From: Nostoc punctiforme PCC 73102
GTDB lineage: Bacteria > Cyanobacteriota > Cyanobacteriia > Cyanobacteriales > Nostocaceae
Direction: 5' to 3'
Length of the DNA: 32,000 bases
Assembly (NCBI RefSeq): GCF_000020025.1
Contig: NC_010628.1
Span: forward strand, 1,860,001-1,892,000
Shown here: piece by piece, positions 6,622 to 23,366 of the stretch
How positions within the stretch are numbered: the stretch's first letter is position 1
Layout: every line of letters begins with the position of its first letter
The notes under the pieces: generated by a model
The model's database searches: none
What the model was told of the DNA's origin: nothing
What the model saw: only the letters and a program-made list of their open reading frames with translations
Position numbers and translations under genes: made by a program

Positions 6622-6987
6622 ATGGATAACCCCATGCTGCTCAAGTCCACAACCCGTCATGTCCGCATTTTTGCAGGCGAGATCGACCGGGATGGCGACC
6701 TAGTTCCAAGTCAACAGGTCTTAACGTTAGATATTGACCCAGATAACGAATTTAACTGGAATGAAGACGCGCTGCAAAAAGTTTATCGAAAATTTGATGA
6801 ACTAGTAGAAGCATCCAGTGGCGCAGACCTCACGGACTATAATTTGCGCCGTGTGGGGTCAGACTTAGAGCATTATCTGCGATCGCTCCTGCAACTCGGC
6901 GAAATCAGCTACAATCTGTCTGCCCGCGTTACCAACTACAGCATGGGAGTCCCCCAAGTTGCAATTGACGACAAACAAGTAAGCTAA
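6622..6987 (+). CDS. ndhM: NAD(P)H-quinone oxidoreductase (NDH-1) subunit M
   Basis: The translation MLLKSTTRHVRIFAGEI..LTLDIDPDNEFNWNEDALQKVYRKFDELV..YNLRRVGSDLEHYLRSLLQLGEISYNL..RVTNYSMG follows the NdhM sequence pattern I recall from Synechocystis and Thermosynechococcus. The real start may be the ATG at 6634 (MLLKST). Confidence 0.9.
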   Translation: MDNPMLLKSTTRHVRIFAGEIDRDGDLVPSQQVLTLDIDPDNEFNWNEDALQKVYRKFDELVEASSGADLTDYNLRRVGSDLEHYLRSLLQLGEISYNLSARVTNYSMGVPQVAIDDKQVS

Positions 6988-7499: not shown

Positions 7500-9785
7500 A
7501 TGGAAAATGACGCGGCAACGCTCTACTGTCCAAACGAAAATTGTCAGGCTGCCAACCCCCTGACTCACAAGTTTTGCCAGCGATGTTCCACGCCCTTACC
7601 CAAAAATTATCTCTGGGCTGTGGTAGATGGCCCAAGTGTGGGTAGCCCTGGAGAAATATTAGCCGATCGCTATTTAGTCGTTGATAAATTTATTCTTTTA
7701 GACACGAAACCTGGTTTCTTAGCGCTAACACCTGAGTTAGAGAATTTACAGCCTCTAAGAGCTTACCTGAGACTCATTCCCTATCGCTTACATGTACCAC
7801 AGGTATATGGAGTGATTTTTATAGCTGACGGATCTTCTCATGAAAGAGAAATATTACTCTTAGAAAAACCGCCACTATTTAAACCGCCACTATTAGTAGA
7901 TGACACAATCCAAGTGTATTTGGGCAGCGAGTTAACCACCGCTTGGCGTGATGCAACATCGATGCGCCAACTCAATTGGTTATGGCAAATAGCTCATCTG
8001 TGGCAACCTCTGGCAAGTGAAGGTGTCGCTTCTAGCTTGCTTGACTCATCTGTATTACGGGTAGAAGGATCGTTAGTCCGGTTGTTGGATTTGCGTTTCG
8101 ACAGCGAAATATCACCAGAATTGCCACAGTTAGGTGAATTTTGGCAGCAATTGGTACATGAAGCCAAACCAGCCATAACTGAATTTGTTGAGCAGGTTAG
8201 CCTTTCCTTAATTCAGGGAGAGATTAACTCAACTGACCAATTGATTACAGTTTTAGACCAGGGACTGGCACAATTAGGGCGATCGCAAACGCCCACGATC
8301 AAAATTATCACCAAAACTGACACTGGCCCAAGTCGCCAACGCAACGAAGATGCCTGTAGCCCTCCCAGTGGAACTCTGATCAGCAAACCACCCCAGCCAA
8401 CGGCTTTAGCAATCGTCTGTGATGGCATCGGTGGCCACGAAGGTGGCAATGTCGCCTCAAATTTAGCCATTGAAACGATCCAGCAGCAGGTACAGCAACT
8501 AACAAAAGTTCCCTACGACCACATAGACCCCTCACTACTGCTTAATGACCTAGAAAAAGCAGTGGCAATTGCCAATGACAAAATTAGTCAGCGCAATGAC
8601 AGTGAAAATCGCCAAGGGCGGCAGCGTATGGGCACGACTTTAGTCATGGCATTGCCTGTTGCACACGAAATGTACATTACCCATGTAGGTGATAGTCGTG
8701 CTTACTGGATTACCCGCCAAGGCTGTTATCAAGTTACCCTTGATGATGATGTCGCTTCCCGTGAGGTGCGGCTAGGCTATGCCATTTACCGCGATGCTGT
8801 ACAACAAAGTTCTGCTGGCTCTCTCGTCCAGGCTTTGGGTATGGGGCCCAGCACTTCACTGCATCCCACATCGGCACGGTTTATGCTCGACGAAGATGCT
8901 ATTTTTCTGCTCACATCCGATGGTTTGAGTGATTTTGATCGGGTGGAGGAATACTGGGAAACAGAAATTTTGCCGATTCTACTTGGGGAAGGAAACATCG
9001 CCAATGTTGCCGATAGATTAATCGAAATTGCTAATACTAAAAACGGACACGATAATGTCACCATCGCTTTAGTCCATTATCAAGTCCAATACTGGGAACC
9101 AGAAATTACCATCAAAGCTTTCATTCCAGAGAGTTATTCTGCCAAAACTGTTGATTTTGCATCCAGGGCAGCAGATGCAAGCCTTTTAGGTAGCCCAAAC
9201 CACAAAACTCAGGTGATTCCCGATACTGAGCCTGCTAAAAATCGCCAATTACCGCTACAGTGGATTGTTCCTTTAATATTTGTGGTGATAGCGGGCTCTT
9301 TAGGATTGTTCGTGAAGGAATTGCGATCGCCATCAGGCTTATTTCCATTTCTTCCCAATCCCACACCAACTCAAAAGCCTACCACCCAAGCAACACCCAC
9401 AGCGCGATCGCTTGATAACCTTTCTCCTGGCTGGGTAATTCAAACCAACAAGGAAATCCCCTTGAGAAATAAACCATCGCTTCCCCCTGGAGCATTTTTA
9501 CAAGTTATCAACACAAATCCAAATCCAAAATCTGGTTCTGGAAATCTTTCGGTTTCTATGCGAGTCTGTCCAAGTAAAAACACGCCAACTCCAGCTAATA
9601 CTAATAAACCAGCAGTAACTTCCTCAATTCCACCCAATTTGAAACCTTTACCGGAAACAGTATTGCTGGAGTTATCCCAACTAAAAAGCTTTGGTGTATC
9701 TGTTTTACAATCAGATGTACCAAATCCCTGTGCAACCGTCACGCAACCGCCAGCTACTCCATCAGCTGACACCAGTCCAACTTAA
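7500..9785 (+). CDS. Membrane-anchored PP2C-family Ser/Thr phosphatase with N-terminal zinc ribbon and a degenerate kinase-like region
   Basis: 761 aa. The zinc ribbon is CPNENCQAANPLTHKFCQRC (aa 10-29). The PP2C motifs are intact: IVCDGIGGHEGG, MGTTLVMA, ITHVGDSRAYW, LLTSDGLSD and NGHDNVTIALV (aa ~267-527). One TM helix (LPLQWIVPLIFVVIAGSLGLFV, aa ~585-605) is followed by a Pro/Thr/Asn-rich tail. Confidence 0.9.
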   Translation: MENDAATLYCPNENCQAANPLTHKFCQRCSTPLPKNYLWAVVDGPSVGSPGEILADRYLVVDKFILLDTKPGFLALTPELENLQPLRAYLRLIPYRLHVPQVYGVIFIADGSSHEREILLLEKPPLFKPPLLVDDTIQVYLGSELTTAWRDATSMRQLNWLWQIAHLWQPLASEGVASSLLDSSVLRVEGSLVRLLDLRFDSEISPELPQLGEFWQQLVHEAKPAITEFVEQVSLSLIQGEINSTDQLITVLDQGLAQLGRSQTPTIKIITKTDTGPSRQRNEDACSPPSGTLISKPPQPTALAIVCDGIGGHEGGNVASNLAIETIQQQVQQLTKVPYDHIDPSLLLNDLEKAVAIANDKISQRNDSENRQGRQRMGTTLVMALPVAHEMYITHVGDSRAYWITRQGCYQVTLDDDVASREVRLGYAIYRDAVQQSSAGSLVQALGMGPSTSLHPTSARFMLDEDAIFLLTSDGLSDFDRVEEYWETEILPILLGEGNIANVADRLIEIANTKNGHDNVTIALVHYQVQYWEPEITIKAFIPESYSAKTVDFASRAADASLLGSPNHKTQVIPDTEPAKNRQLPLQWIVPLIFVVIAGSLGLFVKELRSPSGLFPFLPNPTPTQKPTTQATPTARSLDNLSPGWVIQTNKEIPLRNKPSLPPGAFLQVINTNPNPKSGSGNLSVSMRVCPSKNTPTPANTNKPAVTSSIPPNLKPLPETVLLELSQLKSFGVSVLQSDVPNPCATVTQPPATPSADTSPT

Positions 9786-9910
9786 TCAAATACTCGATAA
9801 ACTGGTAAAAACCTGGAATAATAACAAGTAACAATCAAAGTAAAAAACTTACAAGGTCAAAAAATAGAAAATTTTCACCTTGAAGAATTGTTATTTTAAA
9901 TTATCAAGAA

Positions 9911-10025
9911 AGGCAGGAGGACGTTCGGCGATCGCTCAGTCGAGCCGCAGAGGGCAGTTCTTCCTGGAGGAAAACTACCTGATGTTCGTAGACTCGCTAC
10001 CACTGCGCTACCCTACCTCCTGCCT
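9911..10025. repeat. 115-bp MITE-like element bounded by perfect 10-bp terminal inverted repeats
   Basis: AGGCAGGAGG (9911-9920) and CCTCCTGCCT (10016-10025) are exact reverse complements. The interior carries a HIP1 site and a CCGCAGAGG motif shared with other repeats in the window. The same AGGCAGGA arm forms the hairpin at 31751-31770. ORF 9880-10074 is just its translation. Confidence 0.5.
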
Positions 10026-10061
10026 CCTTCCATTGTTTTTAGCTTTTAATTTTATGAATCC

Positions 10062-11642
10062 ATGCCATCCCTGAATTTGGCGATCGCCCGTCTCTTAAAC
10101 ACTGGCACTGACAACTTCGCCATTTGGGTGGTCAAGGCTCCCTATCCCAGTGGCTACGTTTTACGTGACTGTGTATGGCCTGTTGAACTCAATCAAGTTT
10201 GGCAAGAATGGCAGCAGATGTTTGCTGGCCATAGTCAGCTAGATATTTCCCCAAACTCAACATCTCAAAAGTCGAACCAATTCTCCATAGATTGGATTTC
10301 GCCCCCTTCTGGTCAAACCACTGGGCCTTACAGCAGTCGTCTGATGCAATACTTGGGAATGAATTTATGGCGCTGGGTATTTGACGGGCAAATTCTCGGT
10401 AGTCTAGAACGCAGTCGCGGGATTGCTATGGGTCAGCATACACGTTTGCGCTTTCGGCTAGAAATTCGTGAGCCGGATCTCATCGCTCTGCCTTGGGAAA
10501 TTATGCAGCGTGAGCCTGGCCAATCGGCAATGTCTCTCTCCCAAGATTTGCTATTTAGTCGTACCAGCAGTGAAGTTGACCCATTACCGTATTTGCGAAC
10601 TGACCAAGCTTTAAGTATTTTGCTCGTTTTAGGTCATGATGAAAAGCTGCAACTAGAACAAGAAGCGGCTATTTTACAGCAAAGTCTTGTAGATACACCT
10701 GTGGGTGGTAATTCTCAAAGATATGCACCTTGTATAGTAAATAAACTTATACAACCAACTCCACAAGAGTTGATTCAAGAATTAGAAACCAAAGCATACA
10801 ACGTTTTCTTTTACGCTGGACATGGTTTGCCAGGAGCAGACGGAGGATTACTGTTTTTACGACCAGATATGCCCCTGAATGGGATCGAATTGGCGCAAGT
10901 ATTGACCCGTACAGGTGTGAAACTAGCACTTTTCAATGCCTGTTGGGGCGCACAACCAGCTGCTATCAATCATCAAGCCATACCTGCCAGTAGTTTAGCC
11001 GAAGTACTAATTCGTCATGGTGTGCCTGCTGTTTTGGGGATGCGCGATGAAATCGCCGATCGCGAAAGCCACAGTTTTATTCAAGCGTTTACCGAAGCTT
11101 TGCGATCGCACAAACCCATAGATGAAGCCGTATCACTGGCTAGACAAGAGTTATTAACACTGTATAAATTTAATCAACCAGCTTGGACTTTACCTGTTCT
11201 CTACCTGCATCCAGATTTTAATGGCGAACTCATTAAGAATCTAGATGAAGGTATTACCGAACTGCCAGACACAGCCATTCCTGATGTCGGTTCACCGCTT
11301 CCGACTGCTTCGTTGCGATCGCTCACTCCAAAAGGTAAAACCTGGTTGTTGCGTTATGGAGTCACCCGCATCGGCCGCACGAAAGATAATGATATTGTCA
11401 TCGCCGAACCATCTGTATCCAAACGCCACGCCGAAATCTTCTGCCGTAATACTCTTACTGATGCTACATTGGTGCGAACTTATTATTTGCAAGATTTTTC
11501 CACATACGGTACAACCTGGTTTTTAGGCCCTAATGGATGGCAACAAATCCTCCGAGAGGAAGTACCACTGAAATCGGGAATGCAGTTAAAGTTTGGAAGT
11601 GCTAGAGGCGAAACCTGGGAGTTTATTATTGAAGACTCCTAG
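10062..11642 (+). CDS. CHAT-domain (caspase-fold) protease with C-terminal FHA domain
   Basis: 526 aa. CHAT hallmarks are present: RLRFRLEI..PDLIALPWEIM, the catalytic His in FFYAGHG (His254, 10821-10823) and the catalytic Cys in LALFNACWG (Cys294, 10941-10943). The FHA domain spans aa ~427-512: TRIGRTKDNDIVI, SVSKRHAEI, then STYGT where STNGT is expected. Confidence 0.85.
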   Translation: MPSLNLAIARLLNTGTDNFAIWVVKAPYPSGYVLRDCVWPVELNQVWQEWQQMFAGHSQLDISPNSTSQKSNQFSIDWISPPSGQTTGPYSSRLMQYLGMNLWRWVFDGQILGSLERSRGIAMGQHTRLRFRLEIREPDLIALPWEIMQREPGQSAMSLSQDLLFSRTSSEVDPLPYLRTDQALSILLVLGHDEKLQLEQEAAILQQSLVDTPVGGNSQRYAPCIVNKLIQPTPQELIQELETKAYNVFFYAGHGLPGADGGLLFLRPDMPLNGIELAQVLTRTGVKLALFNACWGAQPAAINHQAIPASSLAEVLIRHGVPAVLGMRDEIADRESHSFIQAFTEALRSHKPIDEAVSLARQELLTLYKFNQPAWTLPVLYLHPDFNGELIKNLDEGITELPDTAIPDVGSPLPTASLRSLTPKGKTWLLRYGVTRIGRTKDNDIVIAEPSVSKRHAEIFCRNTLTDATLVRTYYLQDFSTYGTTWFLGPNGWQQILREEVPLKSGMQLKFGSARGETWEFIIEDS

Positions 11643-11789
11643 TATAGCTATTGCAGAAATGGATTTTCATGTTTAACATCAGCTTTTAAAATCTATTTTT
11701 TCCAGAGAAAAAATCAACTGTTTTTGCGGAAATCTCTTGTGAGGAATTGTAGTTGTCAATACCACCAAATAATCGGGAGAAAATAAAAA

Positions 11790-12437
11790 ATGGCTAAAAA
11801 AATTAACGGCTCAGACACCTTCTCTTCTTCGCCATCTCAAGTAGATTTAGATTTATTAGAAGCACTACTAGAACCAGACGATGCTACCTATCCCTGGAAT
11901 CCAGCTGATGAAGAATCAGAAGCTTATTTTCATGAATTAGAACAACAGTTCGGAATGCAAGATTTGCTTGAGGAAGAACTGACAACGCGATCGCAAGATT
12001 TTTATAACAATCTAGACACACTTTGGTCTAATATCTCCCTTACGTCAAGCTATAATAACAATCCCCAACAGGCACTAGTGCTGAATCTTCAAGAAACACT
12101 ACGTAATACTTTTGCCGCCTGTGTCCCCCAAACATTGCTCAATACCATCGCCCAGAAAGCTGCTGAGATTTTTGCTGTCCAGCAATCAATGGGTGAACAA
12201 CTAGTTGAGTGCGTTCAGACAGTTTTACCAACTTGGGGAACTGAGGATCTTTTAGTTTTAGCTCGTCCTTTTGCTTACGCTATGCGAAGTAGCGAATCGA
12301 AAAACGCGGCATCTGCCATAAGTAATCTTAACAATAGCGAGTGGACAGCTTTATCAGAAGTAGAAAAAGCAAAGGTCACTTTAGCGATCGCTTCTTATGC
12401 TTTTACTCAACTCAACCAGTCTCAGTCTGAACTATAA
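11790..12437 (+). CDS. Acidic protein of unknown function
   Basis: 215-aa ORF preceded by a GGGAGA Shine-Dalgarno-like motif. The N-terminal half is very acidic (DLDLLEALLEPDDATYPWNPADEESEAYFHELEQQFGMQDLLEEEL). I recognise no domain. It is on the same strand as, and immediately after, the CHAT-FHA gene. Confidence 0.6.
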   Translation: MAKKINGSDTFSSSPSQVDLDLLEALLEPDDATYPWNPADEESEAYFHELEQQFGMQDLLEEELTTRSQDFYNNLDTLWSNISLTSSYNNNPQQALVLNLQETLRNTFAACVPQTLLNTIAQKAAEIFAVQQSMGEQLVECVQTVLPTWGTEDLLVLARPFAYAMRSSESKNAASAISNLNNSEWTALSEVEKAKVTLAIASYAFTQLNQSQSEL

Positions 12438-12779
12438 AATCGGGAATAAGTGACAGTTGATCGGTAACGGGCAATAGAAAAAGTAGAGAAAGCCAAAATT
12501 TTCATCATCCGCTGTGTTCGCATAGCCCACGCTTTGTAATCGCTATACGTTTAGAGTCATCTCTTGCAAAGATGTTGATTTACATTCCGCAGAGGCGCAA
12601 AAAAAGAATCGAAAATCAAGACTTTTGCAAGAAGTTTAATGATTTTTATTTTTTAGGCATAGTTATCCCAGAGTAAATTTACGGTATGCTTATTTTCTAA
12701 CTAGGCCATCTATCCAAAGATATAAATATTCAAATTATTCCCTTGCTCCTCTGCTCCCTGATTCCAGTTTCTTCATCTC

Positions 12780-14150
12780 TTATTTTGGGCCGAGAAATCG
12801 GGTAGCGAAATTTTGCGATCGCGTAGGTGATAGCGCCCGTGCCTTGAGAATTGCCGCCATCAAAAAGGCGTAAGATAACACCCCAACAACTACCAACAGC
12901 AAGGCATTGATAGATCCTGTCGCATTCCACAGAGCGTGGAGTGCAGCAGCACTAAGATAACCAATAGAAAGAATTTGCCAACTTCTACTGGGCTTGAGAA
13001 CAGCCAATCCGATAAAATAGCCCAGGTAGCCACTATAAGCCATGTGTCCTGCTACAGAGCCTAAAATTCTCGGAATTAGCAGTTGTAAACCCGCTAGTTG
13101 ACCAGCAGCGCCTATGCCTACCTGTTGTGCAATATCGGGCACATATTGTCCAAGAGTTTCCAATAGAGTGAAGCCTACAGCAGAAGCCGTTCCCAGGAGA
13201 ATACCATCTAGGGGTTCCCAAACGCCGATCTTTTCCCGCCAAGGTGAAGATAACATTCTACCAATGGCAAACGCCCCTAACACAGGTAATGCCTTGAGTA
13301 ATTCCTCCATCAACCCAGCACCAAAAAACATCCGTACCAGTAACTCTGTGAAGGTGGTCGATTCTTGGGGTGAGGGCAAGTTTCCAGGAAGAATACCGCG
13401 AAACACGAAAATAAATAGATCCAACAGTGGACTGAGTAAAATCAACGTTGTACTCAATGCCGCAGCCATTAGCACCCACCAAGGCTTCTGTTTACCGCAA
13501 AGTTGGTAAACAAAATAGTAGGCAGCGAAGGCGATATAAGTTGCAACGATAATTTGATTAGCTTGGGGCTGACCGACTGTAGCAAACATTAACACTACAA
13601 AGATTACGGTCAGTATTCCCGGTACAAGGTAAGCTTTTCGAGTTAAATCTTTACCAGTGGAAATAATAGGGAAAAGCTGAGTGAAGCTAACAGAATCTGG
13701 CTGCTTTAATTGGGTGTGGCCGTGGTAATTTGTTGCCGAAGGTAATGGTGTAACTTGGTTAACTGTTGTGGCCGGGGCTTGGTAAGTAAATTCGTACTCA
13801 AAAACGTATTGCGGACCATCAGCACCTAGAGAAATGCGATCGCCTGGGTGCAATTCCTGACATTCATACAAGCGTTGTCCATTCAAATAAGTGCCATTAG
13901 CACTATTTAAATCACAAAGTACCCAGCTGAATTTGCTATCTGGCGATAAAGAGAGGGGACGAACCACCGCATGACGACGAGATACCATCCGGTACATCAT
14001 GGCATCCAAGACAACTTGGCAGCTGGGGTCGCGTCCAATTACCATCTCTTTGCTGGGGGGCAGCGAGTAGCGAGATTCTGATCCAGAAGCTGCCCCATTA
14101 CCAGACACTAGCCGCAGAAATGCATTATGTCTTGCGTTTTTGCCTGTCAT
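12780..14150 (-). CDS. FHA domain fused to a PrsW-type multi-pass intramembrane protease
   Basis: 456 aa. The N-terminal FHA domain is canonical (MVIGRDPSCQVVL, VSRRHAVV, DLNSANGTYLNG, GDRISLG). A linker and about 7 hydrophobic helices follow, carrying the PrsW/CAAX-protease-like motifs EELLK (aa 282-286), FTLLE (327-331) and HALWN (405-409). Confidence 0.85.
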   Translation of the reverse strand: MTGKNARHNAFLRLVSGNGAASGSESRYSLPPSKEMVIGRDPSCQVVLDAMMYRMVSRRHAVVRPLSLSPDSKFSWVLCDLNSANGTYLNGQRLYECQELHPGDRISLGADGPQYVFEYEFTYQAPATTVNQVTPLPSATNYHGHTQLKQPDSVSFTQLFPIISTGKDLTRKAYLVPGILTVIFVVLMFATVGQPQANQIIVATYIAFAAYYFVYQLCGKQKPWWVLMAAALSTTLILLSPLLDLFIFVFRGILPGNLPSPQESTTFTELLVRMFFGAGLMEELLKALPVLGAFAIGRMLSSPWREKIGVWEPLDGILLGTASAVGFTLLETLGQYVPDIAQQVGIGAAGQLAGLQLLIPRILGSVAGHMAYSGYLGYFIGLAVLKPSRSWQILSIGYLSAAALHALWNATGSINALLLVVVGVLSYAFLMAAILKARALSPTRSQNFATRFLGPK

Positions 14151-14544
14151 CGAGTTAGTGTGCGTTTCTAAACTAATTCTTCTTCATATAATTTGGCAGC
14201 AGGACTAACCTTAGCCACATTAACAGCAGCATTGCTAAATCCACTATAGCTTCACTTACTGCTAAGAAATTTAAAATTCTAGAAGGGAAATTTCAAATTG
14301 TTTCACCTAATGTTAATAAGTATTCCATGTACTGAGAGTTTGTCCTAAATGGGCTTGTCATGCGGATGAATCAGACTATATGATTTGTCTGCTTTTGACA
14401 TCCTAGCGGTAAATTTCATCCAAAGCAATTTATCAAAAAACAGTAATTTTTACTGCATTTAGTTTCATTTAGAAAATATATAATTTCTGGTGGTCTATTG
14501 CGAGCTGTATGATCTTCTTCCAAAGAGACAGGCTAGCGCTTTTC

Positions 14545-14631
14545 CTTCTCTACGAGAGGCTGCGCCCTAAGCGGAGCTATGCCGAAGGCTTTACGGAACG
14601 CTCTGCGAACGCAAAGCGTCTTGTAAAGAAG
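14545..14631. repeat. Small dispersed repeat (SDR-like hairpin element), copy A
   Basis: CTTCTCTACGAGAGGCTGCGCCCTAAGCGGAGCTATGC (14545-14582) matches the reverse complement of 28232-28269 at 37 of 38 positions. The ends CTTCTCTACG and CGTCTTGTAAAGAAG form imperfect terminal inverted repeats. Confidence 0.6.
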
Positions 14632-14796
14632 GGAGTTTCCCCATGAGTAACTGGCGTTAGCACGGTAGCGAGTACTCGAACGTTTGTAGGAGCGTCACCT
14701 GAAAGGTCAGCTGTTTTTGCCACAGTTTATTTGAAGCAGGGAGTAGGTAAAGAAACTACCCTGAATATCCCCCCAAAAGATTTTCGGTGTGTTGGC

Positions 14797-15036
14797 TCAA
14801 ATAACTGTAGCCAGTTCTGGGTGTTCAATCTTGGTTCCAAGTACTATCAGGAATTCTGCCAGCCAACGGGGGTGAGCAGGCCAAGCCGGTGCTGTCACCA
14901 AATTACCATCAACTATTGCCTCATCAACAGGGATATCAACATAAACCCCTCCAGCACTCTTGACATCTGGACTACAAGTAGGGTAGCCAGTGCATCTCTT
15001 CCCTTGCAGTACATCAGCAGTTGCTAATAACTGTAA
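14797..15036 (-). pseudogene. 3' fragment of a DJ-1/PfpI-family (type-1 glutamine-amidotransferase-like) gene
   Basis: The minus-strand frame has no start codon, so it is missing from the ORF track. It reads (C)LQLLATADVLQGKRCTGYPTCSPDVKSAGGVYVDIPVDEAIVDGNLVTAPAWPAHPRWLAEFLIVLGTKIEHPELATVI* with the stop at 14799-14797. This is the C-terminal third of DJ-1/PfpI proteins. The nucleophile-elbow region and everything upstream are replaced by unrelated AT-rich DNA. Confidence 0.6.
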
Positions 15037-15244
15037 GCACCTCCACCTATTAGTTAATAGTCAATAGTCTAGAATCAATATTTATCAATTGTTTATAAAA
15101 TAAATATTAATTTAGAGTTGAGTCTATTAGGCATGAGCAGATGCACGAATTTTTGACACATTACAGCAATAATTCTGCGGTAATGTATCATTTCATGGTG
15201 GCAAGTTAACAAAGTGTAATGTACCGAACACATTTGTTCTGTAA

Positions 15245-15703
15245 TTAAAGCAGATTAAATTCTGCGATCGCTATTGGAAAGTTTTTGCTTTCATGTCCTG
15301 GGCGGCTGAGTTTAATTAAGGCAAAACGCTGTAAGGGTGTTAAAGCTGCCCAATGTTGCGGTGTCAGATTTACACCTATTTCTTGAGCTTTTTCCTGGAG
15401 GCTAGGTGGTACAGTGCTAGAGTCTAGCCATGCAGGATGTGGCTCAATGGGTAATTTTGTAGCTGGTATACCTGTGCGTTCTAGAATTAATTGTTGAATA
15501 TGTTCGCGGTAAGACTGAATTTCCGTTTCTGTTGTGCAAGGTAACTCGACTAAAGCTTGACGCTCGGCTGTAGTCATTTGATTCCAATCAGATAGTTTTA
15601 GCTTAATGCCACAAGTATCTAAATTGCAACGCACCTGCATGGGGATACAACGAAGGGAATCAACAAAGTCTGCTTCAAATTGAAAAAAATATGTCATAGT
15701 CAA
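15245..15703 (-). CDS. narM: Nitrate reductase-associated protein (NarM-type)
   Basis: 152 aa beginning ..YFFQFEADFVDSLRCIPMQVRCNLDTCGIKLKLSDWNQMTTAERQALVELPC. This is the pattern I recall for the nitrate-reductase-associated family required for NarB activity in Synechococcus elongatus. It is on the same strand as narB, 1 kb downstream. Confidence 0.7.
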   Translation of the reverse strand: MTMTYFFQFEADFVDSLRCIPMQVRCNLDTCGIKLKLSDWNQMTTAERQALVELPCTTETEIQSYREHIQQLILERTGIPATKLPIEPHPAWLDSSTVPPSLQEKAQEIGVNLTPQHWAALTPLQRFALIKLSRPGHESKNFPIAIAEFNLL

Positions 15704-15943
15704 GTATTAAAAATTTGATTATTCTAAATTAACGATTTTTAAACATCAATAATTTTATATTTAACTTACAGAAATAACTAATTAAAAACAAGAGTTAACT
15801 AGCGATCGCACACTAATAATCTTTACCAAATTCAGTTTTGGCTGTTCTTAATTATAAGTATACTTTGTTGCTTGTGGTAAATTCAGCCAAAACTATATTT
15901 ATATACAAATAATACTCGAAAATATCTGAATTGATCTTTAATT

Positions 15944-16402
15944 TTAACGAGTGTTTCTGTCATTACTGAGACGAATTATCAAGTAACTAATTGATAAGGC
16001 GAGAATAGCTATTCCTAAACCAATTATATCAACACCTCCAACTTTTTCTAAATCAAGAATAATAATTTTTCTGGCTACGGCAATCAAAGAAGTGACAATA
16101 ACTAATTCAACCTGAAAAACGTGCTTTCGCAAATAAGCTGTGATATTTTCTAAAATTTCTAAAGCAATTAAAATATTCAAAAATAGCCCAAATATTTTAT
16201 ATAAGGTTGTGTTAAACTTAGCATAAGGGGCTGTCAATAACTCTCTAAAAATAAAAACTGCTAAGTCTCCGATTGCAACCAAAATTACAACTACCATAAA
16301 AATAGATAGAACTTTAGAAACTAGCACCTCTATGTTTTCAATGATGTGCATGAAGTTTTCATCTTTGGTAGCTCCGAGAATTTGCCTCATTAACTTTTTC
16401 AT
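15944..16402 (-). CDS. PsiE-like small integral membrane protein
   Basis: 152 aa from ATG 16402. The track start at 16411 is a GTG, and an AGGTG Shine-Dalgarno-like motif precedes the ATG. Four hydrophobic helices and the core LFLNILIALEILENI..VELVIVTSLIAVARKIIILD resemble the phosphate-starvation-inducible PsiE family. Confidence 0.6.
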   Translation of the reverse strand: MKKLMRQILGATKDENFMHIIENIEVLVSKVLSIFMVVVILVAIGDLAVFIFRELLTAPYAKFNTTLYKIFGLFLNILIALEILENITAYLRKHVFQVELVIVTSLIAVARKIIILDLEKVGGVDIIGLGIAILALSISYLIIRLSNDRNTR

Positions 16403-16420
16403 TTGCTGCACCTGATTTTT

Positions 16421-16457
16421 AAATAAAATAAAATCCTATAGATAAATCTAGAGGATT
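16421..16457 (-). terminator. Hairpin plus U-rich tract between narB and the PsiE-like gene (intrinsic-terminator-like)
   Basis: The minus-strand RNA reads AAUCCUCUAGA-UUUA-UCUAUAGGAUU (10 of 11 pairs), followed directly by UUAUUUUAUUU. It lies 230 nt after the narB stop and ends about 10 nt before the Shine-Dalgarno motif of the next gene. The stem is AU-rich and therefore weak. Confidence 0.35.
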
Positions 16458-16687
16458 AAAAAAAGATGATTTGTAAGTTTACTATCTGATTTTTATTCTT
16501 TCCCATAGCTTAACTTGGTGCTAGTAAAATCTCTGCTTACTAGAAATCTAGCCTCTTTATATATGGTAATTGCTATGAGTCAAGAGTAGAGAGCCATAAA
16601 AAATGATAATAACTATTGGTTATTTATTATTGACTAAATTACTTATTAGTGATTGTTAATTACCTCTTGAGAGATATACTTTGCACC

Positions 16688-18970
16688 TTAGCATTGTGAT
16701 GACTGGAATTGATAATCTTTGACTGCAACTTCTACAGAAATTGGAATCAGCTGCACAGCACAGGCTTTTAATTCTGGTTGCAGCGAATCCGGGCAAGATT
16801 CTGGATGGGTGAGGGCGTTAGCTTCGGCATTATCTGCCCATAATGAACCCCAGTGCATAGGGACAAAAACTGTACCAGGTGCGATCGCTTTTGTCACTTT
16901 AGCAGGAAATTGAGCTTTACCCCGACGCGATCGCACTTGCACACACTGATTATCTAAAATACCTAACTTCGCCGCATCACGGGGATGAATTTCGATAAAC
17001 GGTTCGGGGTGCATTTTGCAAATTTTTTCAATGCGACCGGTGCGTGTTTGGGTATGCCAATGTCCGTAAAGTCGCCCATTAGTTAGCACAAAAGGATAAT
17101 CTGGGTCTGGTGGTTCTGCCAATCCCTTTGAGTAATATGCCCCAAATTGAGCGCGTCCATCAGGGGTATGAAAGCGTAAATCAGTGTAAAGCCGTTTTCC
17201 CATTCTGAGTGTATGGTACTTACGCTTCTTCTCGGCTTCTTTGTCAGAGAAAGTTTCTTCTTCTGGCTGAAAACTTAAGAGTCCTGTTTCAGTATCGATA
17301 AATACTGACTCTACTTTCTTGGCTGGGTAAGGCCATTGAGTTGGGCCTTGTGTCAATTGCTCATGACTGATACCTGTCATATCGCAGGGGCGATTTTGAG
17401 TTAATTGGACGAATTCAGCATAAACTTCAGCCGAGTTAGCAAAGGCGAACTCTTTTTCAAAACCTAATCTCCGTCCAACTTCAGCGAAAATTTCCCAATC
17501 TGCTTTAGCTTCTCTTGGTGGTTGGCGAAATGCTTGACACAGAGTTACCACCCGTTCGGAGTTTGTCATCACACCAGTTTTTTCACCCCACTGGGCTGCT
17601 GGTAGCAAAACGTGAGCATAGGCAGAGGTTTCTGTGGGATAATAAGCATCTTGGTAAATGGTAAAAGGCGATCGCAACAACGCCTTCTTAGTTCGCTCCA
17701 AATCTGGCATACTTACAGCCGGATTAGTAGCTGCAATCCACAATAACCCGACAGCATCACTTTCCAAGCCAGTAATCATATCCCAAGCAGTCAAACCGGG
17801 ATTGGGTGAAATCTGTCCTGGTTTAAGTCCCCAAAACTCCTCAACTTCTGCGCGATGCTGAGGATTTTTCACAACCCGATAACCAGGTAATAAATGTGCC
17901 AAACCTCCGGCTTCGCGTCCTCCCATTGCATTCGGCTGACCAGTCAGGGAAAAAGGGCCAGCCCCAGGTTTGCCGATTTGTCCAGTCATCAGGTGCAGAT
18001 TGATGATAGTTCTTACCTTGGCTGTCCCTTCTGATGATTGATTCACACCCATCGACCACAAAGAAAGTACCCGCCTAGATTCACCCCAATAACGGGCTGC
18101 TGTTTCTAAATCTTCAATACTGATTCCGCATTGACGAGCTACCACTTCCGGGGAATAGTGGCGAATCACTTCAGCATAAGCGGGAAAGTTGCTGGTGCAG
18201 TCGTCCATGAACATGGTATCGATGTAGTTCCAGCGCATCAATAAGTGAGCGATACCGTTCAACAAATCGATATCTGTACCCGGACGAATGGCTAAATGTA
18301 AGTCGGCGGCTTCTGCGGTTGGCGTGCGTCGGGGATCGACCACAATCATTTTGACTTTGCGGTTCTTTTTGTGATATTTCTCTAGTCGGTTAAAAACGAT
18401 TGGATGACATTCGGCTGTATTAGTGCCTATTAAAAATGCACAGTCGGTTAACTCCAAGTCTTCATAACAGCAGGGCGGACCATCTGAGCCAAAACTTTGA
18501 ATGTACCCAGCCACAGCACTAGACATACATAAACGGGAGTTGGCATCAAAATTATTAGTACCCAGACAGCCTTTCATAAGCTTCTGGGCTATGTAGTAGT
18601 CTTCGGTTTGAAACTGACCGGAACCATACATACATAACGCTTCTGGCCCTTGGGTGAAGCGGACTGTTTGAATACGCTGCGTGATGAGATTAAAAGCTTC
18701 ATCCCAACTAACGCGCCGAAACTCTTGATCTAAAGAGTCTCGCACCATTGGGTAATGTAATCTATTTTTATCTAAAGATTCTGCGATCGTTGCGCCTTTG
18801 ACACAAACCATTCCTTGACTAGATGGATGGGCTTTATCGCCCCGCACCCGCCAAGTCGGATTTCCTTGACCATCTCGATTAGTTGCTTTGCCAAGTTGGG
18901 CTGGGGGTGAAACTTCTAGTCCACAGCCAACACCACAGTAAGGACAAAGAGTTTTGGTAAATTCACTCAT
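16688..18970 (-). CDS. narB: Assimilatory ferredoxin-dependent nitrate reductase (molybdopterin oxidoreductase)
   Basis: 760 aa with an N-terminal 4Fe-4S motif ([13 protein letters not shown]), bis-MGD oxidoreductase domains throughout and a C-terminal molybdopterin dinucleotide-binding barrel. It is the last gene of the nirA-nrtP-narB arrangement. Confidence 0.95.
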
Positions 18971-19028
18971 GGCAGTTGTACCATTTTGTTATTTTGATTG
19001 TGCAATCTCATCTTTTTAAACATCTTTA

Positions 19029-19125
19029 CTCTGCGTCTCTGTGGTTAAATAAATTATTTTTAAACCGCAGAGGCGCAGAGGAGGACACTTCTGTGCGGGG
19101 GTTCCCCCCGTTGAAAAAAGTGTCC
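19029..19125. repeat. Two adjacent repeat-derived hairpins in the nrtP-narB intercistronic spacer
   Basis: The arms CTCTGCGTCTCTGTGGTT (19029-19046) and AACCGCAGAGGCGCAGAG (19063-19080) are complementary at 16 of 18 positions. A second pair, GGACACTT (19083-19090) and AAGTGTCC (19118-19125), encloses CGGGGG-TT-CCCCCG. The motif CCGCAGAGGCGCA (19065-19077) recurs at 12587-12599. Confidence 0.55.
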
Positions 19126-19212
19126 GTCAGCGCTGAGAAAAAACTTCATGAGTTGCACTCACAAGACAAGATGAAAATATCTCTTGTAATGCTCGATTTT
19201 CAAAGGATAAGT

Positions 19213-20715
19213 CTATTCTTCAGTTAAGAAAACAGAGCTTTTAGTTGCAGTTTCTGATGCTTCACCTTCGTAGGCTGGAGCAAAGGAACCTTTTGGTTCT
19301 TTGAGGAAGAAGGCACACATAAAAGCACAGATTAGTGCAGCTATACCCATTGTGCTAAATAGTGTGGGAGCGTCGGTTAAGCTAAAAATTGTTAGGTAAA
19401 CTACGCCGCCAAAATTACCGTAAGCTCCGACATTGCCCGCAATTTGTCCAGTGGCTTCCTTTTTAATCATGGGTACGATGCTGTAGGTTGCACCGCAACC
19501 AGCTTGAGCAAAATAAGCGGCAAACATTGTAACTGCGATCGCTACTGGAATCGGCCAGTTACTATTAATAAAATGTGCCATCAAATAACTAACACCGATA
19601 CCAACGCTGATAATGGTCATCGTCCACTTACGCGAACCAAATTTATCAGAAATTAAACCACCACTAGGACGAGAAACCAAATTTAAGAAGGGATAGGTGG
19701 CAGCAATCATCCCAGCGACAACATGCTCTAAACCAAAGGTTTTCTCAAAAAATGCCGGGAGCATAGAAACGGCTGCCAGTTCGCTGCCAAAGTTGGTTAT
19801 GTAAGTGAATTCGAGTAAAGCTACTTGTCCAAATTGAAAGCGTTCAGATACAGGGTAAGTTTTCTTGCCAGTGAGAAGTTCTCGGTTTACCTGCCAAGCT
19901 TTATAACTTTGGTAAGCAAACAATCCTGCTAATACCAACCAAGTCAAATACATTTGACTCAGAGTTAGGAAGTGAATTTTCTTTTGTTCTAAGCGCCAAG
20001 CTAATAAACCCAAGGCGAAAATCAAACCAAAATTTGAGATCATCATCGCCCAGAAGCTTTTGATGCTAGTCACTTCTAGGGAACCATTCTTTTTAGGTTT
20101 CTTGTAGACTTTGCCTCTAGGCGTATCTTGGACAGTGTTGTAGTAAATTACGCCATAAATAGCAGTTATGATGCCTACAAGTGCGATCGCTAATCGCCAG
20201 TTAGAAGCACCACCAGAGAAAAAGCTAGTAGAAATTGCAAGTATCGGTAAGGCAAACTCTGCGCCAAAAGCTCCGAAGTTGCCCCAACCGCCATAAATGC
20301 CCTGAGCAATTCCCATCTCCTTTGGCTGGAACCATTCTGCCACCATGCGGATACCGACAACAAACCCAGACCCGACAATTCCCATCAGCAAACGACTGAT
20401 GACTAATTGATTAAAGTCTTGCGCTAGGGCTGTTGCTAAACAAGGAACTACTGCAAACATCAGCAAGATTGAGTAGGTGATTCTAGGACCAAAACGATCT
20501 AGAAGCATCCCAATGATTAACCGGGCGGGAATTGTGAGAGCGAGGTTACAGATGCCCAAGGTTTTGATTTGCTCAGGGGCTAAATGTAGTTCTTTGCCAA
20601 TGGTTGTAGCGAAGGGAGCAAAGTTAAACCAACAGACAAAGGTGAGAAAGAAAGCAAACCAAGTCTGATGTAAGATGCGGTAGCGATCGCTGAATGAAAA
20701 TAATTTTTTAAGCAT
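19213..20715 (-). CDS. nrtP: MFS-type nitrate/nitrite transporter (NrtP/NapA)
   Basis: About 12 predicted TM helices with the NNP-family signature region (GIAQGIYGGWGNFG, AGNVGAYGNFGG). It sits between nirA and narB, as in Nostoc punctiforme. The likely start is ATG 20715 (MLKKLFSFSDRY), because the track's longer 5' extension runs into an intergenic repeat. Confidence 0.9.
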   Translation of the reverse strand: MLKKLFSFSDRYRILHQTWFAFFLTFVCWFNFAPFATTIGKELHLAPEQIKTLGICNLALTIPARLIIGMLLDRFGPRITYSILLMFAVVPCLATALAQDFNQLVISRLLMGIVGSGFVVGIRMVAEWFQPKEMGIAQGIYGGWGNFGAFGAEFALPILAISTSFFSGGASNWRLAIALVGIITAIYGVIYYNTVQDTPRGKVYKKPKKNGSLEVTSIKSFWAMMISNFGLIFALGLLAWRLEQKKIHFLTLSQMYLTWLVLAGLFAYQSYKAWQVNRELLTGKKTYPVSERFQFGQVALLEFTYITNFGSELAAVSMLPAFFEKTFGLEHVVAGMIAATYPFLNLVSRPSGGLISDKFGSRKWTMTIISVGIGVSYLMAHFINSNWPIPVAIAVTMFAAYFAQAGCGATYSIVPMIKKEATGQIAGNVGAYGNFGGVVYLTIFSLTDAPTLFSTMGIAALICAFMCAFFLKEPKGSFAPAYEGEASETATKSSVFLTEE

Positions 20716-20781
20716 TCTAATTGAAGAGGTAAAGAAGTGCGGGAGATTGTAAAACTGTTGGGTTAGCTTGTTTATCGAACA

Positions 20782-20868
20782 AAGATCCCCCAACCCCCCC
20801 TTAAAAAGGGTGGCTATTTTCTTCCTTTACTCCCTTCTTAAAGGAGTCGCCACAGGTGGGGGGATCTT
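20782..20868. repeat. Hairpin repeat in the nirA-nrtP intercistronic spacer
   Basis: AAGATCCCCCAACC (20782-20795) and GGTGGGGGGATCTT (20855-20868) are complementary at 13 of 14 positions and flank 59 nt. That interior contains CCCTTAAAAAGGG, a motif typical of Nostoc intergenic repeats. Confidence 0.55.
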
Positions 20869-20888
20869 ATTTTTGGAAATAGCAGTTA

Positions 20889-22472
20889 CTAACCGCTAAT
20901 TACTAAGGCTTCTTGCTTGAGTTTTGCCCCAAAGTTTTTGATTAGTAAGTCTTGCAATAATGGCTGCAAGTCTTCGCACGGTACGCCTTTGGTAACGCAA
21001 GTTCCTAAATGAGCGTCTTTGCCGACTTTACCGCCCATATATATATCAACACCTTCCAAGGTTTTGCCATTTTTACGAGTTTTGGTTCCCATCAAGCCGA
21101 TGTCTGCAACTTGGGGCTGGCCGCAAGAGTTTGGGCAACCTGTCCAGTGAATTCGGACTGGATTGGTGAAGATTAAGTCTTCTTCTAAGGCTTTAATCAT
21201 TTCCAGGGCGCGGTTTTTGGTTTCGATGAGAGCGAAGTTGCAAAATTGTGCGCCTGTGCAAGATACTAGCGATCGCGCCAGTAAACCTGGATTAATAGAA
21301 AATCTTTCTAGCAACGGTTCTGTGAAAAATGTTGCTAACCGTGAGTCAGAAATGTTGGGGATAACGATGTTTTGCTCAACGGTAAAGCGGATTTCACCAC
21401 TGCCAAAAACTTCAGCTAGACGAGCGATTTCAAACATATCTTCGGCATACAGTCGCCCGACGGGAATATTTAAACCTGCGTAATTTAGCCCCGGTTGTTT
21501 TTGTTTATATACTCCGATGTGGTCGCGTTTTTCCCAGTCGATCTCGTCTTTTGCGGCTGCGGGTAATAACGATTTACCCAAACGAGTGTCTACTTCTGCT
21601 CGAAATTTTTCTAAACCCCATTCATCAATTAGCCACATCAAGCGGGATTTTTGCCGATTGGCACGCGGCCCGTGGTCACGAAAGACTTCTAAAACTGCTC
21701 TACATACAGCTACCACATCTTCTGGAGCCACCCAAGCATTTAGAGGAATCGCCGCCTCACAGCGTTTAGCTGAGAAAAAGCCACCTACGAGGATATTAAA
21801 GCCAAATATCGGTGGTTTAGAGAATTCTTGCCCATTCGCTTCCTTAAATGCGGGAACAAAAGCTAAATCATTAATTTCAGCGTGAACTGAATTGTCTCTT
21901 CCACCTGCGATCGCAATGTTAAATTTCCGTGGTAAGTTGCTAAACTCTGGGTTTCCTTCACCTTTGTTGGTGAGCATATCTTGAATCTGCTGTATCAACT
22001 CTCGTGTGTCGTACAACTCATCTGCATCCAACCCCGCCACCGGATCGCCTGTGATATTGCGGATGTTATCCATCCCTGATTGGATAGTGGTTAAACCAAC
22101 TGCGTGAAATCTATTAAAGATATCTGGTAAATCTTCAATTCTGATTCCCCGTAATTGGATATTCTGTCTGGTGGTAATATCGGCGCACCCATCATCTCCG
22201 TAACGCTGCACCACTTGGGCTAAAACACTCATCTGACTGCTGGTGAGAATACCATTAGGCATCCGTAACCGCATCATAAACTTGCCTGGGGTAACAGGGC
22301 GAAAAAATACGCCCACCCACTTGAGCCGATGATCGCGATCTGTTTCGTCCATTGCTTCCCAGCCCAAGGCGGCAAATTTCTCTATCTCATCCCTGATGGC
22401 GAGTCCATCTTTTTGCGCCTTGAATTTCTCGAATTTATTGAGGCTGGTAGTCGTAGTTGTTGTGTCTGTCAT
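20889..22472 (-). CDS. nirA: Ferredoxin-nitrite reductase
   Basis: The sulfite/nitrite reductase 4Fe-4S-siroheme family is recognisable (..SCTGAQFCNFALIETK.., ..WTGCPNSCGQPQVADIGLMG..). The N-terminus MTDTTTTTTSLNKFEKFKAQKDGL resembles Anabaena NirA, so ATG 22472 is preferred over the track's TTG at 22523. Confidence 0.95.
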   Translation of the reverse strand: MTDTTTTTTSLNKFEKFKAQKDGLAIRDEIEKFAALGWEAMDETDRDHRLKWVGVFFRPVTPGKFMMRLRMPNGILTSSQMSVLAQVVQRYGDDGCADITTRQNIQLRGIRIEDLPDIFNRFHAVGLTTIQSGMDNIRNITGDPVAGLDADELYDTRELIQQIQDMLTNKGEGNPEFSNLPRKFNIAIAGGRDNSVHAEINDLAFVPAFKEANGQEFSKPPIFGFNILVGGFFSAKRCEAAIPLNAWVAPEDVVAVCRAVLEVFRDHGPRANRQKSRLMWLIDEWGLEKFRAEVDTRLGKSLLPAAAKDEIDWEKRDHIGVYKQKQPGLNYAGLNIPVGRLYAEDMFEIARLAEVFGSGEIRFTVEQNIVIPNISDSRLATFFTEPLLERFSINPGLLARSLVSCTGAQFCNFALIETKNRALEMIKALEEDLIFTNPVRIHWTGCPNSCGQPQVADIGLMGTKTRKNGKTLEGVDIYMGGKVGKDAHLGTCVTKGVPCEDLQPLLQDLLIKNFGAKLKQEALVISG

Positions 22473-22727
22473 GAGGCTGACTCTCGTGAGAATTTGTGCT
22501 GCTAATTGCCCGATATCAATCAACCCGTAGTTCCATTAGGTGGTGTATCTACGAGGGTTAGGGAATAAAAATTTAATATTTGATTACGGCTGATTATTGT
22601 TACTCAAAAGTATTCCAACGTGAAACTTCAAATCCTTGCTTAGTTAAGGAAAACTTGTCGCCATTTACATCTGTAAAATTTGTCAAGCAGGTTTAGATAA
22701 TGTTCATGTAACAATTTCGATACTCAT

Positions 22728-22769
22728 AACTTAAGACGAGATTTCTGTTAAAATCGTATAAATTGTTAC
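22728..22769 (-). promoter_or_regulatory. NtcA-activated (class II type) promoter candidate for nirA
   Basis: A canonical NtcA box GTA-N8-TAC sits at 22756-22769 (GTATAAATTGTTAC). Exactly 22 nt downstream on the minus strand is a TAN3T -10 hexamer, TAAGTT (22733-22728). This implies a leader of about 250 nt. Confidence 0.6.
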
Positions 22770-22797
22770 GATTTTTTAGTAAAATTGCTGAAAATGG

Positions 22798-22812
22798 ATG
22801 CATAATATGCAT
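22798..22812 (-). promoter_or_regulatory. LysR-type T-N11-A dyad, candidate NtcB site upstream of the nirA NtcA box
   Basis: ATGCATAATATGCAT contains TGCA-N5-TGCA within T-N11-A (22799-22811). It is centred about 42 bp upstream of the NtcA-box centre, and a third TGCAT lies at 22818-22822. Confidence 0.35.
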
Positions 22813-22902
22813 TTTTTGCATCAAGGTCGGCTAATGAGCCACTTAAAGCGCTTGATAAAGAGTGTTTGACATGATCTAAGCGGTTTTGGATTGCCATAGA
22901 TT

Positions 22903-22926
22903 AATCCAAAATCCAAAATCCAAAAT
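22903..22926. repeat. Heptamer tandem repeat (AATCCAA x3.4) in the leader of the Rieske gene
   Basis: AATCCAA AATCCAA AATCCAA AAT. The first unit also pairs with TTTTGGATT (22884-22892) to give a 9-bp hairpin. Confidence 0.7.
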
Positions 22927-22938
22927 TGAGTGGCAATT

Positions 22939-23349
22939 ATGAAACGTCGTGATTTTATTAATTGGGTAGGTTTGGGTTTGATAGCGAGTTCTCTACCTGT
23001 AGCGATCGCAGCTTGTTCTTCCCAAACACCTTCTGCATCTGGAGATTGGCAAACAGTAGGCACTTCGGCAGAATTAGATAAAACTGGTCAATTGTTGGCT
23101 AAAAACTCACCTGCTGGGCCTGTGTTGGTAGTCGGTACATCTAAAGCCGCAATGACAGCTGTTAACCCTACCTGTACTCACGCAGGTTGCACCGTAGCAT
23201 GGAAAGCTGAGGCAAAAAAATTCGCTTGTCCCTGTCATGGCTCAGAATATGGGGTTGATGGTAAGGTGCTAAAAGGCCCAGCTACAGAAGCGCTTAAAAC
23301 TTACGCCGCCAAAATTGAAGGTAATTCAGTTGTAGTCAAGCCAACTTAA
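22939..23349 (+). CDS. petC3: Small Tat/lipoprotein-type Rieske [2Fe-2S] protein (PetC3-like)
   Basis: The signal is twin-arginine (MKRRDFINWVGLGLIASSLPVAIAAC) with a lipobox Cys. The Rieske motifs are CTHAGC and CPCHGS. It is divergent from nirA, as I recall for all0606 (PetC3) in Anabaena PCC 7120. ATG 22939 is preferred over GTG 22930. Confidence 0.8.
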   Translation: MKRRDFINWVGLGLIASSLPVAIAACSSQTPSASGDWQTVGTSAELDKTGQLLAKNSPAGPVLVVGTSKAAMTAVNPTCTHAGCTVAWKAEAKKFACPCHGSEYGVDGKVLKGPATEALKTYAAKIEGNSVVVKPT

Positions 23350-23366
23350 ACAATATAATTCAGGGT

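Follow-up and report, generated by a model that had tools for sequence, protein, structure and literature searches.

A conserved cyanobacterial cluster of a PrpJ1-type PP2C phosphatase, two FHA-protease fusions and an acidic protein: a candidate phosphothreonine-dependent proteolysis module

Introduction

CHAT proteases are known from type III-E CRISPR and other conflict systems. The founding CHAT protein, however, is HetF, whose CHAT domain degrades PatU3 in a Cys295-dependent manner and which couples cell division to heterocyst differentiation (PMC9457339). Here we describe a four-gene cluster of Nostoc punctiforme PCC 73102 in which a HetF-like CHAT protease ending in an FHA domain (CHAT-FHA) is encoded next to a membrane-anchored PP2C phosphatase, an acidic protein of an orphan family, and a PrsW-type intramembrane protease with an FHA domain of its own (FHA-PrsW). 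The cluster lies within a 32,000-nucleotide stretch of contig NC_010628.1 (positions 1,860,001 to 1,892,000 of the forward strand; hereafter the window), and we give an even chance to the reading that it represents a cyanobacterial membrane phosphothreonine-dependent proteolysis module whose kinase is encoded elsewhere.

The FHA readers of the Mycobacterium tuberculosis fhaA-fhaB-pstP-pknA-pknB cluster and of the type VI Fha1-PpkA-PppA cluster adjoin a PP2C eraser, as they do in the window. PstP of M. tuberculosis is membrane-anchored, like the PP2C protein studied here, and possesses an extracytoplasmic tail. In contrast to these clusters, the one in the window contains no kinase, and its readers are fused directly to proteases; seven non-cyanobacterial FHA loci that we inspected (L071-L077) follow the classical pattern, with kinases adjacent.

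FHA-PrsW belongs to the same Pfam family as PrsW of Bacillus subtilis, the site-1 protease of RsiW, and keeps its EExxK, FxxxE, H, and HxxxN motifs. It differs from the Bacillus enzyme through its added N-terminal FHA domain and its score of only 19.5 bits against the NCBIfam model intramemb_PrsW, whose cut-off is 225. Pfam scans of the 19 other open reading frames (ORFs) of the window (18 of at least 100 aa plus a 94-aa ORF of the Npun_R1517 family) revealed no gene for an ECF sigma or anti-sigma factor, and the locus therefore does not represent a PrsW-RsiW-SigW pathway. Fusions of FHA domains to PrsW have been mentioned only in passing, by one comparative-genomics survey (PMC3482391).

The Craspase of type III-E CRISPR systems (gRAMP with TPR-CHAT/Csx29) likewise relies on a CHAT-fold protease. 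The window ORFs, however, hold neither gRAMP/Cas7-11 nor TPR domains nor gasdermin-type partners, the window is devoid of CRISPR-like repeats and arrays, and CHAT-FHA is a conserved core gene rather than part of a mobile defense locus. CHAT-FHA has a HetF-like CHAT domain with the same Cys/His dyad; while HetF possesses a transmembrane segment and periplasmic TPRs after its CHAT domain (PMC9457339), CHAT-FHA is predicted to be soluble, ends in an FHA domain, and has as its neighbor the acidic orphan protein and not PatU3. The closest characterized relative of CHAT-FHA is HetF, and not Craspase or a gasdermin protease. An earlier note on this DNA, made from its sequence, had named the CRISPR and gasdermin contexts as the best-known precedents and had remarked on their absence here; the absence holds, and the relevant precedent is HetF.

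The cluster also has a counterpart with a genetic record. For Anabaena PCC 7120, the gene table in the supplement of PMC3141674 lists alr1728 in rightward orientation, followed by the leftward genes all1729 ("unknown protein," 745 bp), all1730 ("similar to HetF protein," 1678 bp), all1731 (2377 bp), and all1732 (457 bp). Order, orientation, and relative sizes of the four window genes agree with those of alr1728, all1729, all1730, and all1731, and we conclude that the cluster corresponds to the alr1728-all1731 region. The window phosphatase thus shares with PrpJ1 (All1731) both its position and the architecture of a membrane PP2C, including a transmembrane helix. The gene all1731 is prpJ; its product is a PP2C of the plasma membrane, and the mutant is devoid of the major heterocyst glycolipid and cannot fix N2 in air (PMC6161253, citing Jang 2007). 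In PMC4005646, which cites Lechno-Yossef 2011, alr1728 is described as a FurA-activated Fox gene of unknown function; the published FurA boxes of its promoter were not found in the related loci that we compared. Twelve hours after nitrogen step-down, alr1728, all1729, and all1731 are up 3.1-fold, 3.6-fold, and 3.0-fold, respectively (PMC3141674 supplement). The statement of the earlier note that the cluster could not be mapped to a characterized pathway is thus superseded by its match to the prpJ/alr1728 Fox-gene region.

PrpJ1 and Alr1728 have been known as heterocyst-maturation genes for more than a decade, and neither has a substrate or a pathway. The literature that we searched does not link PrpJ to FHA-protease neighbors, holds no combination of PrsW, FHA, and PP2C, and does not combine CHAT and FHA domains in cyanobacteria. 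Parts of the subject have thus been described before, namely PrpJ1, alr1728 as a Fox gene, and proteases of the HetF type; their union in one phospho-regulated proteolytic unit is not found in that literature.

Results and Discussion

Domain architecture of the encoded proteins

Three of the four genes are read from the plus strand, at 7500-9785 (761 aa), 10062-11642 (526 aa), and 11790-12437 (215 aa); the fourth, at 12780-14150 on the minus strand (456 aa), is convergent to them. These coordinates, as given in the earlier note, match the ORF list exactly, and profile hidden Markov models (HMMs) recover all of the PP2C, CHAT, FHA, and PrsW domains that it had assigned by eye at scores above the Pfam gathering thresholds; as a description of the locus, that note was accurate.

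The first gene (7500-9785, plus strand) encodes a PrpJ1-type membrane phosphatase recognized by Pfam PP2C_2 (40.4 bits; cut-off 24) and PP2C (35 bits), and by the NCBIfam models PRK14559 and Stp1_PP2C. Its catalytic domain spans aa 272-527 (8313-9080), with Stp1_PP2C aligning over aa 272-525 (E 6.7e-46), and the metal-binding motifs RxxNED, DGxGGH, GDSR, SDG, and DN are invariant in all 29 orthologues compared; profile score and metal-binding Asp motifs together place the protein in the PPM/PP2C family. A single transmembrane helix is predicted at aa 587-605 (9258-9314; Kyte-Doolittle score 2.18), in agreement with the membrane anchoring proposed before. The helix is followed by a Pro/Thr-rich, poorly conserved tail (conservation 0.2-0.4 beyond aa 540). 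Just in front of the helix stands a juxtamembrane threonine, T570, within the motif K-T-x-V-I/V/L (KTQVI in the window protein), which is kept in 28/29 orthologues. FHA domains commonly prefer a hydrophobic residue at position +3, and the I/V/L at that place of the T570 motif fits this preference.

The N-terminus of the phosphatase begins with a 4-Cys zinc ribbon (aa 9-34; 7524-7601) in which C10, C15, C26, and C29 are invariant and which is detected as Pfam DZR in 13/13 orthologues. The NCBIfam model 4Cys_prefix_kin, which has a cut-off of 24 bits, scores 27 bits in the PP2C protein of one locus (L040), 15-22 bits in the other orthologues, and 13.2 bits (E 0.082, below the cut-off) in the window protein. 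Between ribbon and catalytic domain lies a conserved N-domain of about 230 aa (aa 35-271; 7602-8312; e.g., RQLNWLWQ), which in the orthologues aligns to positions ~155-328 of the PRK14559 phosphatase model. Searches with the single sequence or with a profile yielded no Pfam or PDB match for it, and a single-sequence AF2 model (pLDDT 37) was not usable for fold assignment. A by-eye likeness of this N-terminus to a degenerate kinase had raised the idea of a pseudokinase, which is not supported: hhalign comparisons with PknB and with a 14-kinase alignment, the probability against a kinase alignment being 4%, and a comparison with the kinase of a related locus (L022; see below) gave nothing beyond the zinc ribbon, the only recognizable element in common with kinases.

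The second gene (10062-11642, plus strand), which stands at the position of all1730, specifies the HetF-like CHAT protease with a C-terminal FHA domain; it matches Pfam CHAT and FHA as well as the HetF model of NCBIfam and is 73-94% identical across the Nostocales. The CHAT domain (aa 139-369; 10476-11168; 63 bits, cut-off 24) contains a His254/Cys294 dyad that is invariant in 37/37 orthologues, and profile and dyad together identify it as a protease of the caspase-hemoglobinase fold. Against the NCBIfam model CellDiv_HetF, 141.9 bits (E 2.4e-41) were obtained, with only the CHAT part aligning. Since this score lies far below the equivalog cut-off of 1200 and an FHA domain takes the place of the transmembrane segment and periplasmic TPRs, we regard CHAT-FHA as a HetF paralogue and not as HetF itself. 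No transmembrane helix was predicted in it. The FHA domain (aa 435-512; 11364-11597) is recognized with 52 bits (E 6.6e-14); in its pocket, G438, S453, and S480 are invariant, and R439 and H456 are kept in 34/37 orthologues. The linker ahead of the FHA domain harbors a threonine, T399 (EGITELPD), found in all 37 orthologues. Both T399 and the T570 of the phosphatase stand in linkers that are otherwise variable.

FHA-PrsW, encoded on the minus strand at 12780-14150 at the position of alr1728, combines a cytoplasmic FHA domain (aa 37-109; 13824-14042; Pfam FHA 65 bits, E 7.8e-18) with a PrsW protease domain (aa 222-434; 12849-13487) that covers the full Pfam PrsW-protease model, positions 1-196, at 131.8 bits (cut-off 23.5; E 3e-38). 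Several hydrophobic segments are predicted, which makes the protein multi-pass; together with the profile and the EExxK/FxxxE/H/HxxxN signature this assigns it to the PrsW/M82 glutamic-type intramembrane proteases. Among 24 sequences ranging down to 33% identity, E283, K286, E331, and H405 of the protease domain are invariant, and E282 and H369 are kept in at least 90%; in the FHA domain, G39 and H60 are invariant, and R40, S57, S83, N85, G86, and T87 are likewise kept in at least 90%. The protein is 77-97% identical across the Nostocales and 100% identical to its counterparts in Nostoc sp. LEGE 12450 and a Nostoc metagenome-assembled genome (MAG); its homologues (E<=1e-30) form 208 clusters at 50% identity. 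An additional copy of FHA-PrsW, with 58-59% identity and none of the cluster neighbors, occurs in Stigonema, Scytonema tolypothrichoides, and Iphinoe (L046, L049, and L067); S. tolypothrichoides possesses both copies, one with the cluster (L015) and one without it (L049).

By profile and pocket residues, both FHA domains are predicted members of their family, and each retains the Arg and Ser that contact the phosphate. They are not recent duplicates of one another and are unrelated beyond the fold. The catalytic residues of PP2C, CHAT, and PrsW are conserved in the orthologues, a point on which the earlier note had made its reading depend, and judged from these residues PP2C, CHAT-FHA, and FHA-PrsW are catalytically intact, working enzymes.

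The remaining gene (11790-12437, plus strand) codes for a very acidic protein (pI 4.08) of the All1729 family, an orphan family whose 455 homologues are all unnamed. It had been described as lacking a recognizable domain, and Pfam indeed gives nothing significant; PDB, family, and fold searches were equally negative. In an AF2 model (mean pLDDT 61), the acidic N-terminal half is disordered and aa 93-214 form a helical bundle (pLDDT 70-84); a YPWNP motif is conserved in the family. A published "core set" of genes for filamentous cyanobacteria includes all1729 (PMC2821919). The family is not strictly tied to filaments, since it is present in Chroococcidiopsis (L025) and in an Aphanothece MAG (L055).

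Conservation of the gene neighborhood

To follow the cluster across genomes, we anchored a synteny comparison on FHA-PrsW with one genome per species, which gave 66 cyanobacterial loci, 54 of them with enough flanking sequence. CHAT-FHA and the acidic gene adjoin FHA-PrsW in 35/54 evaluable loci, in the same order and orientation, a recurrence that argues against a chance grouping. The PP2C gene is also present in 30 of these 35; eight further loci contain CHAT-FHA, the acidic gene, and FHA-PrsW without PP2C. All Nostocales loci with enough flank and an FHA-PrsW of at least 70% identity show the order ndhM - PP2C - CHAT-FHA - acidic gene, with FHA-PrsW convergent to these, and the same cluster order was found in Chroococcidiopsis, Crinalium, an Oscillatoriophycideae MAG, Aphanothece, and Elainella. 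In a Leptolyngbyaceae MAG (L062) the genes are rearranged, yet all lie within about 10 kb. One contig labeled as an Actinomycetota MAG (L041) carries the order def / FHA-PrsW / acidic gene / CHAT-FHA, typical of cyanobacteria, at 55-62% identity, and is probably a mis-binned cyanobacterial contig.

In the reciprocal test, CHAT-FHA served as the anchor in metagenome contigs, and lineages were dereplicated at 85% identity or above. The acidic gene adjoins CHAT-FHA in 66/69 contigs (33/36 dereplicated lineages), PP2C lies directly upstream of it in 33/55 contigs (23/32 lineages; 72%), and FHA-PrsW is found within its flank in 15/50 contigs (11/27 lineages). These counts describe a graded linkage, near-obligate for CHAT-FHA and the acidic gene, frequent for PP2C (60-85%), and lineage-dependent for FHA-PrsW. 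The co-localization on which the earlier note relied is therefore borne out in that the homologues do cluster across cyanobacteria, but not in the sense of four equally linked genes, as FHA-PrsW is adjacent in only ~30-40% of the non-Nostocales lineages.

The same data bear on the idea that the cluster is an anti-phage or programmed-cell-death island with an infection-triggered, caspase-like protease, an idea that derives its appeal from the occurrence of CHAT proteases in conflict systems. A PADLOC search with the four proteins gave no significant match, only a marginal PDC-S14 hit to the acidic protein (E 0.0083, 13 bits), and no cas genes, CRISPR array, or gasdermin were detected in the window. 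The genes behave like core genes, with 73-97% identity across the Nostocales, and the composition of the window is normal. Their position is stable as well: they stand beside ndhM in 28 loci, and on the opposite side nitrate-assimilation genes follow in roughly half of the Nostocales loci. We consider a defense island very improbable and reject this explanation.

A kinase encoded elsewhere

Consistent with the statement of the earlier note that the window holds no competent Ser/Thr kinase, the Pfam scans of its other ORFs revealed no Pkinase domain, and tblastn with the kinase domain of PknB against the window gave a best E value of 6.2. The window cluster is therefore not a Hanks kinase-FHA-PP2C cluster in the sense of a Ser/Thr kinase encoded alongside reader and eraser. 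The related loci are almost as barren: a kinase of any kind was found in 4/66 cyanobacterial genome loci (up to 10 kb on each side) and in none of 80 metagenome loci, and 145/146 loci lack a kinase inside the cluster.

The single exception is found in Aliinostoc sp. HNIBRCY26 (L022), where a gene for an active 493-aa Ser/Thr kinase (14500-15981 of that locus, minus strand) separates the PP2C gene from that of CHAT-FHA and runs in the same direction as both. The kinase domain is intact, HRD and DFG motifs included, and the protein has a 4-Cys zinc ribbon (4Cys_prefix_kin, 37 bits; cut-off 24) to which the ribbon of the PP2C protein is related with an hhalign probability of 92%. Over the transmembrane helix and the C-terminal domain, 163 residues in all, it is 77% identical to the phosphatase next to it. 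Kinase and phosphatase of this locus look like a matched pair with one common sensor domain. The L022 kinase and its ribbon likeness to PP2C suggest to us that the normal partner of the cluster would be a trans-encoded membrane kinase with a 4-Cys ribbon.

A candidate proteolysis module and its alternatives

Taken together, composition, domains, and linkage are consistent with the following scheme. A Hanks-type kinase encoded away from the cluster, probably a membrane kinase of the "4-Cys-prefix" type, would phosphorylate threonines of proteins close to the membrane. The FHA domains, although unrelated to each other, would then dock the CHAT and PrsW proteases onto these phosphothreonine marks, with T399 in the CHAT-FHA linker and T570 in the juxtamembrane linker of PP2C as candidate docking sites. 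CHAT-FHA would cut in the cytosol and FHA-PrsW in the membrane, while PP2C would erase the marks and thereby limit or reset proteolysis; for the CHAT protease, the acidic protein might be a substrate, an inhibitor, or an adaptor. In species that form heterocysts, the pathway may contribute to maturation of the heterocyst envelope, a role that we propose since the prpJ and alr1728 mutants of PCC 7120 both fail to grow on N2 in air. The underlying function is probably more general, for instance in cell division or in the quality control of envelope or membrane proteins, given that the cluster is also present in non-heterocystous and in some unicellular cyanobacteria. With a HetF-like protease in a conserved cluster and FHA domains on both proteases, a PrpJ1 that restrains FHA-targeted proteolysis would offer a concrete, testable mechanism, and by fusing FHA domains directly to proteases bacteria would couple phosphorylation to irreversible proteolysis in a simple way.

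Several observations weigh against this scheme. The phosphorylation-gated proteolytic switch that the earlier note had predicted agrees with composition, domains, and linkage, but the gating, like the kinase, phosphosites, substrates, and physical interactions that it would require, is what we infer from them. The correspondence to alr1728-all1731 is one of position, size, and annotation and not of aligned sequence, and all1730 is barely induced, 1.5-fold at 12 h after nitrogen step-down (PMC3141674 supplement). The FHA domain of CHAT-FHA lacks the canonical Asn of the Asn-Gly motif and has Tyr/Phe at aa 482 in 34/37 orthologues, which may alter its peptide specificity, and an invariant threonine was sought in the acidic protein family and not found. 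Outside the Nostocales, finally, FHA-PrsW is not adjacent in 60-70% of the CHAT-FHA lineages; in 32/66 loci FHA-PrsW is immediately preceded, on its own strand, by a gene whose sequence looks by eye like that of a peptide deformylase (def; e.g., L024:8744-9304 and L025-L041). These 32 loci are all outside the Nostocales, and the pairing is seen irrespective of the presence of the CHAT cluster. Frequent non-adjacency and def pairing suggest that FHA-PrsW may be an independent unit.

The latter findings lead to the most serious alternative, according to which the locus comprises two units: PP2C, CHAT-FHA, and the acidic protein would form a module of their own, and FHA-PrsW would be an independent housekeeping membrane protease, kept next to them in the Nostocales and some other lineages by inherited gene order. 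Besides its pairing with def and its presence in the CHAT-FHA flank of only 11 of 27 lineages, FHA-PrsW is convergent and therefore not co-transcribed with the other three genes, and its FHA domain has nothing beyond the fold in common with that of CHAT-FHA. On the other hand, the adjacency recurs in distant cyanobacteria (Nostocales, Chroococcidiopsis, Leptolyngbyaceae, Elainella, and Aphanothece) and survives the rearrangement in L062; prpJ and alr1728 have the Fox phenotype in common and are co-induced about threefold at 12 h; and the fusion of an FHA domain to a protease, a rare feature, is common to both neighbors. On balance, we regard two separate units as possible though rather unlikely.

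A further alternative would uncouple the phosphatase from the readers: PP2C would act on unrelated targets, e.g., regulators of ntcA or hetR expression, and the FHA domains would serve as phospho-independent interaction modules or as autoinhibitory domains. The Tyr/Phe in place of Asn in CHAT-FHA and the lack of a conserved threonine in the acidic partner would fit such a division. The phosphate-contacting Arg and Ser, however, are conserved in both FHA domains, PP2C adjoins CHAT-FHA in 72% of the dereplicated lineages, and the linker threonines T399 (37/37) and T570 (28/29) are conserved, all of which makes this explanation improbable to us.

The proposed proteolysis module can also be spelled out in a more specific form, reminiscent of separase and securin. 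The acidic partner would either inhibit CHAT-FHA as a pseudosubstrate or serve as its first substrate; release would depend on threonine phosphorylation that the fused FHA domain reads and PrpJ1 removes; and FHA-PrsW would constitute a second, membrane arm acting on the same phospho-mark. Taken as a whole, this version is a long shot. If true, it would amount to a circuit of the phospho-degron type in bacteria, by which cells become committed to a developmental fate.

Genomic context of the cluster

Upstream of the PP2C gene lies ndhM (6622-6987, plus strand; Pfam NdhM, E 3.5e-52), which occupies this position in the 28 loci mentioned above. We regard it as a conserved neighbor that provides context only; nothing ties it to the module. 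The Pfam scans of the other window ORFs identified, in addition to NdhM, a nitrate-assimilation set, a response regulator, a Uma2 protein, a ShlB-type transporter, and several more. The nitrate-assimilation region (15245-24665 and 26077-28183) includes, on the minus strand, nirA, an MFS-type nitrate/nitrite transporter gene, narB, and the genes for a nitrate-reductase-associated protein and a PsiE-family protein; genes for a Rieske protein, a HEAT-repeat protein, a LysR regulator, and a glycosyltransferase-family-3 protein are found nearby.

Scans for promoters and terminators gave nothing above the expectation from shuffled sequences, and Rfam produced no matches. The 1.1 kb between FHA-PrsW and the nitrate-reductase-associated gene (14151-15244) contains no convincing ORF and no Rfam match; in many other Nostocales loci this position is filled by a 200-aa gene, DJ-1/PfpI-like by eye, which L001 and L002 lack as well. 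The heptamer AAAGGAC is repeated in tandem (7.4 copies; 27059-27110) where the glycosyltransferase-family-3 ORF starts, just downstream of a 14-bp direct repeat at 27027-27053.

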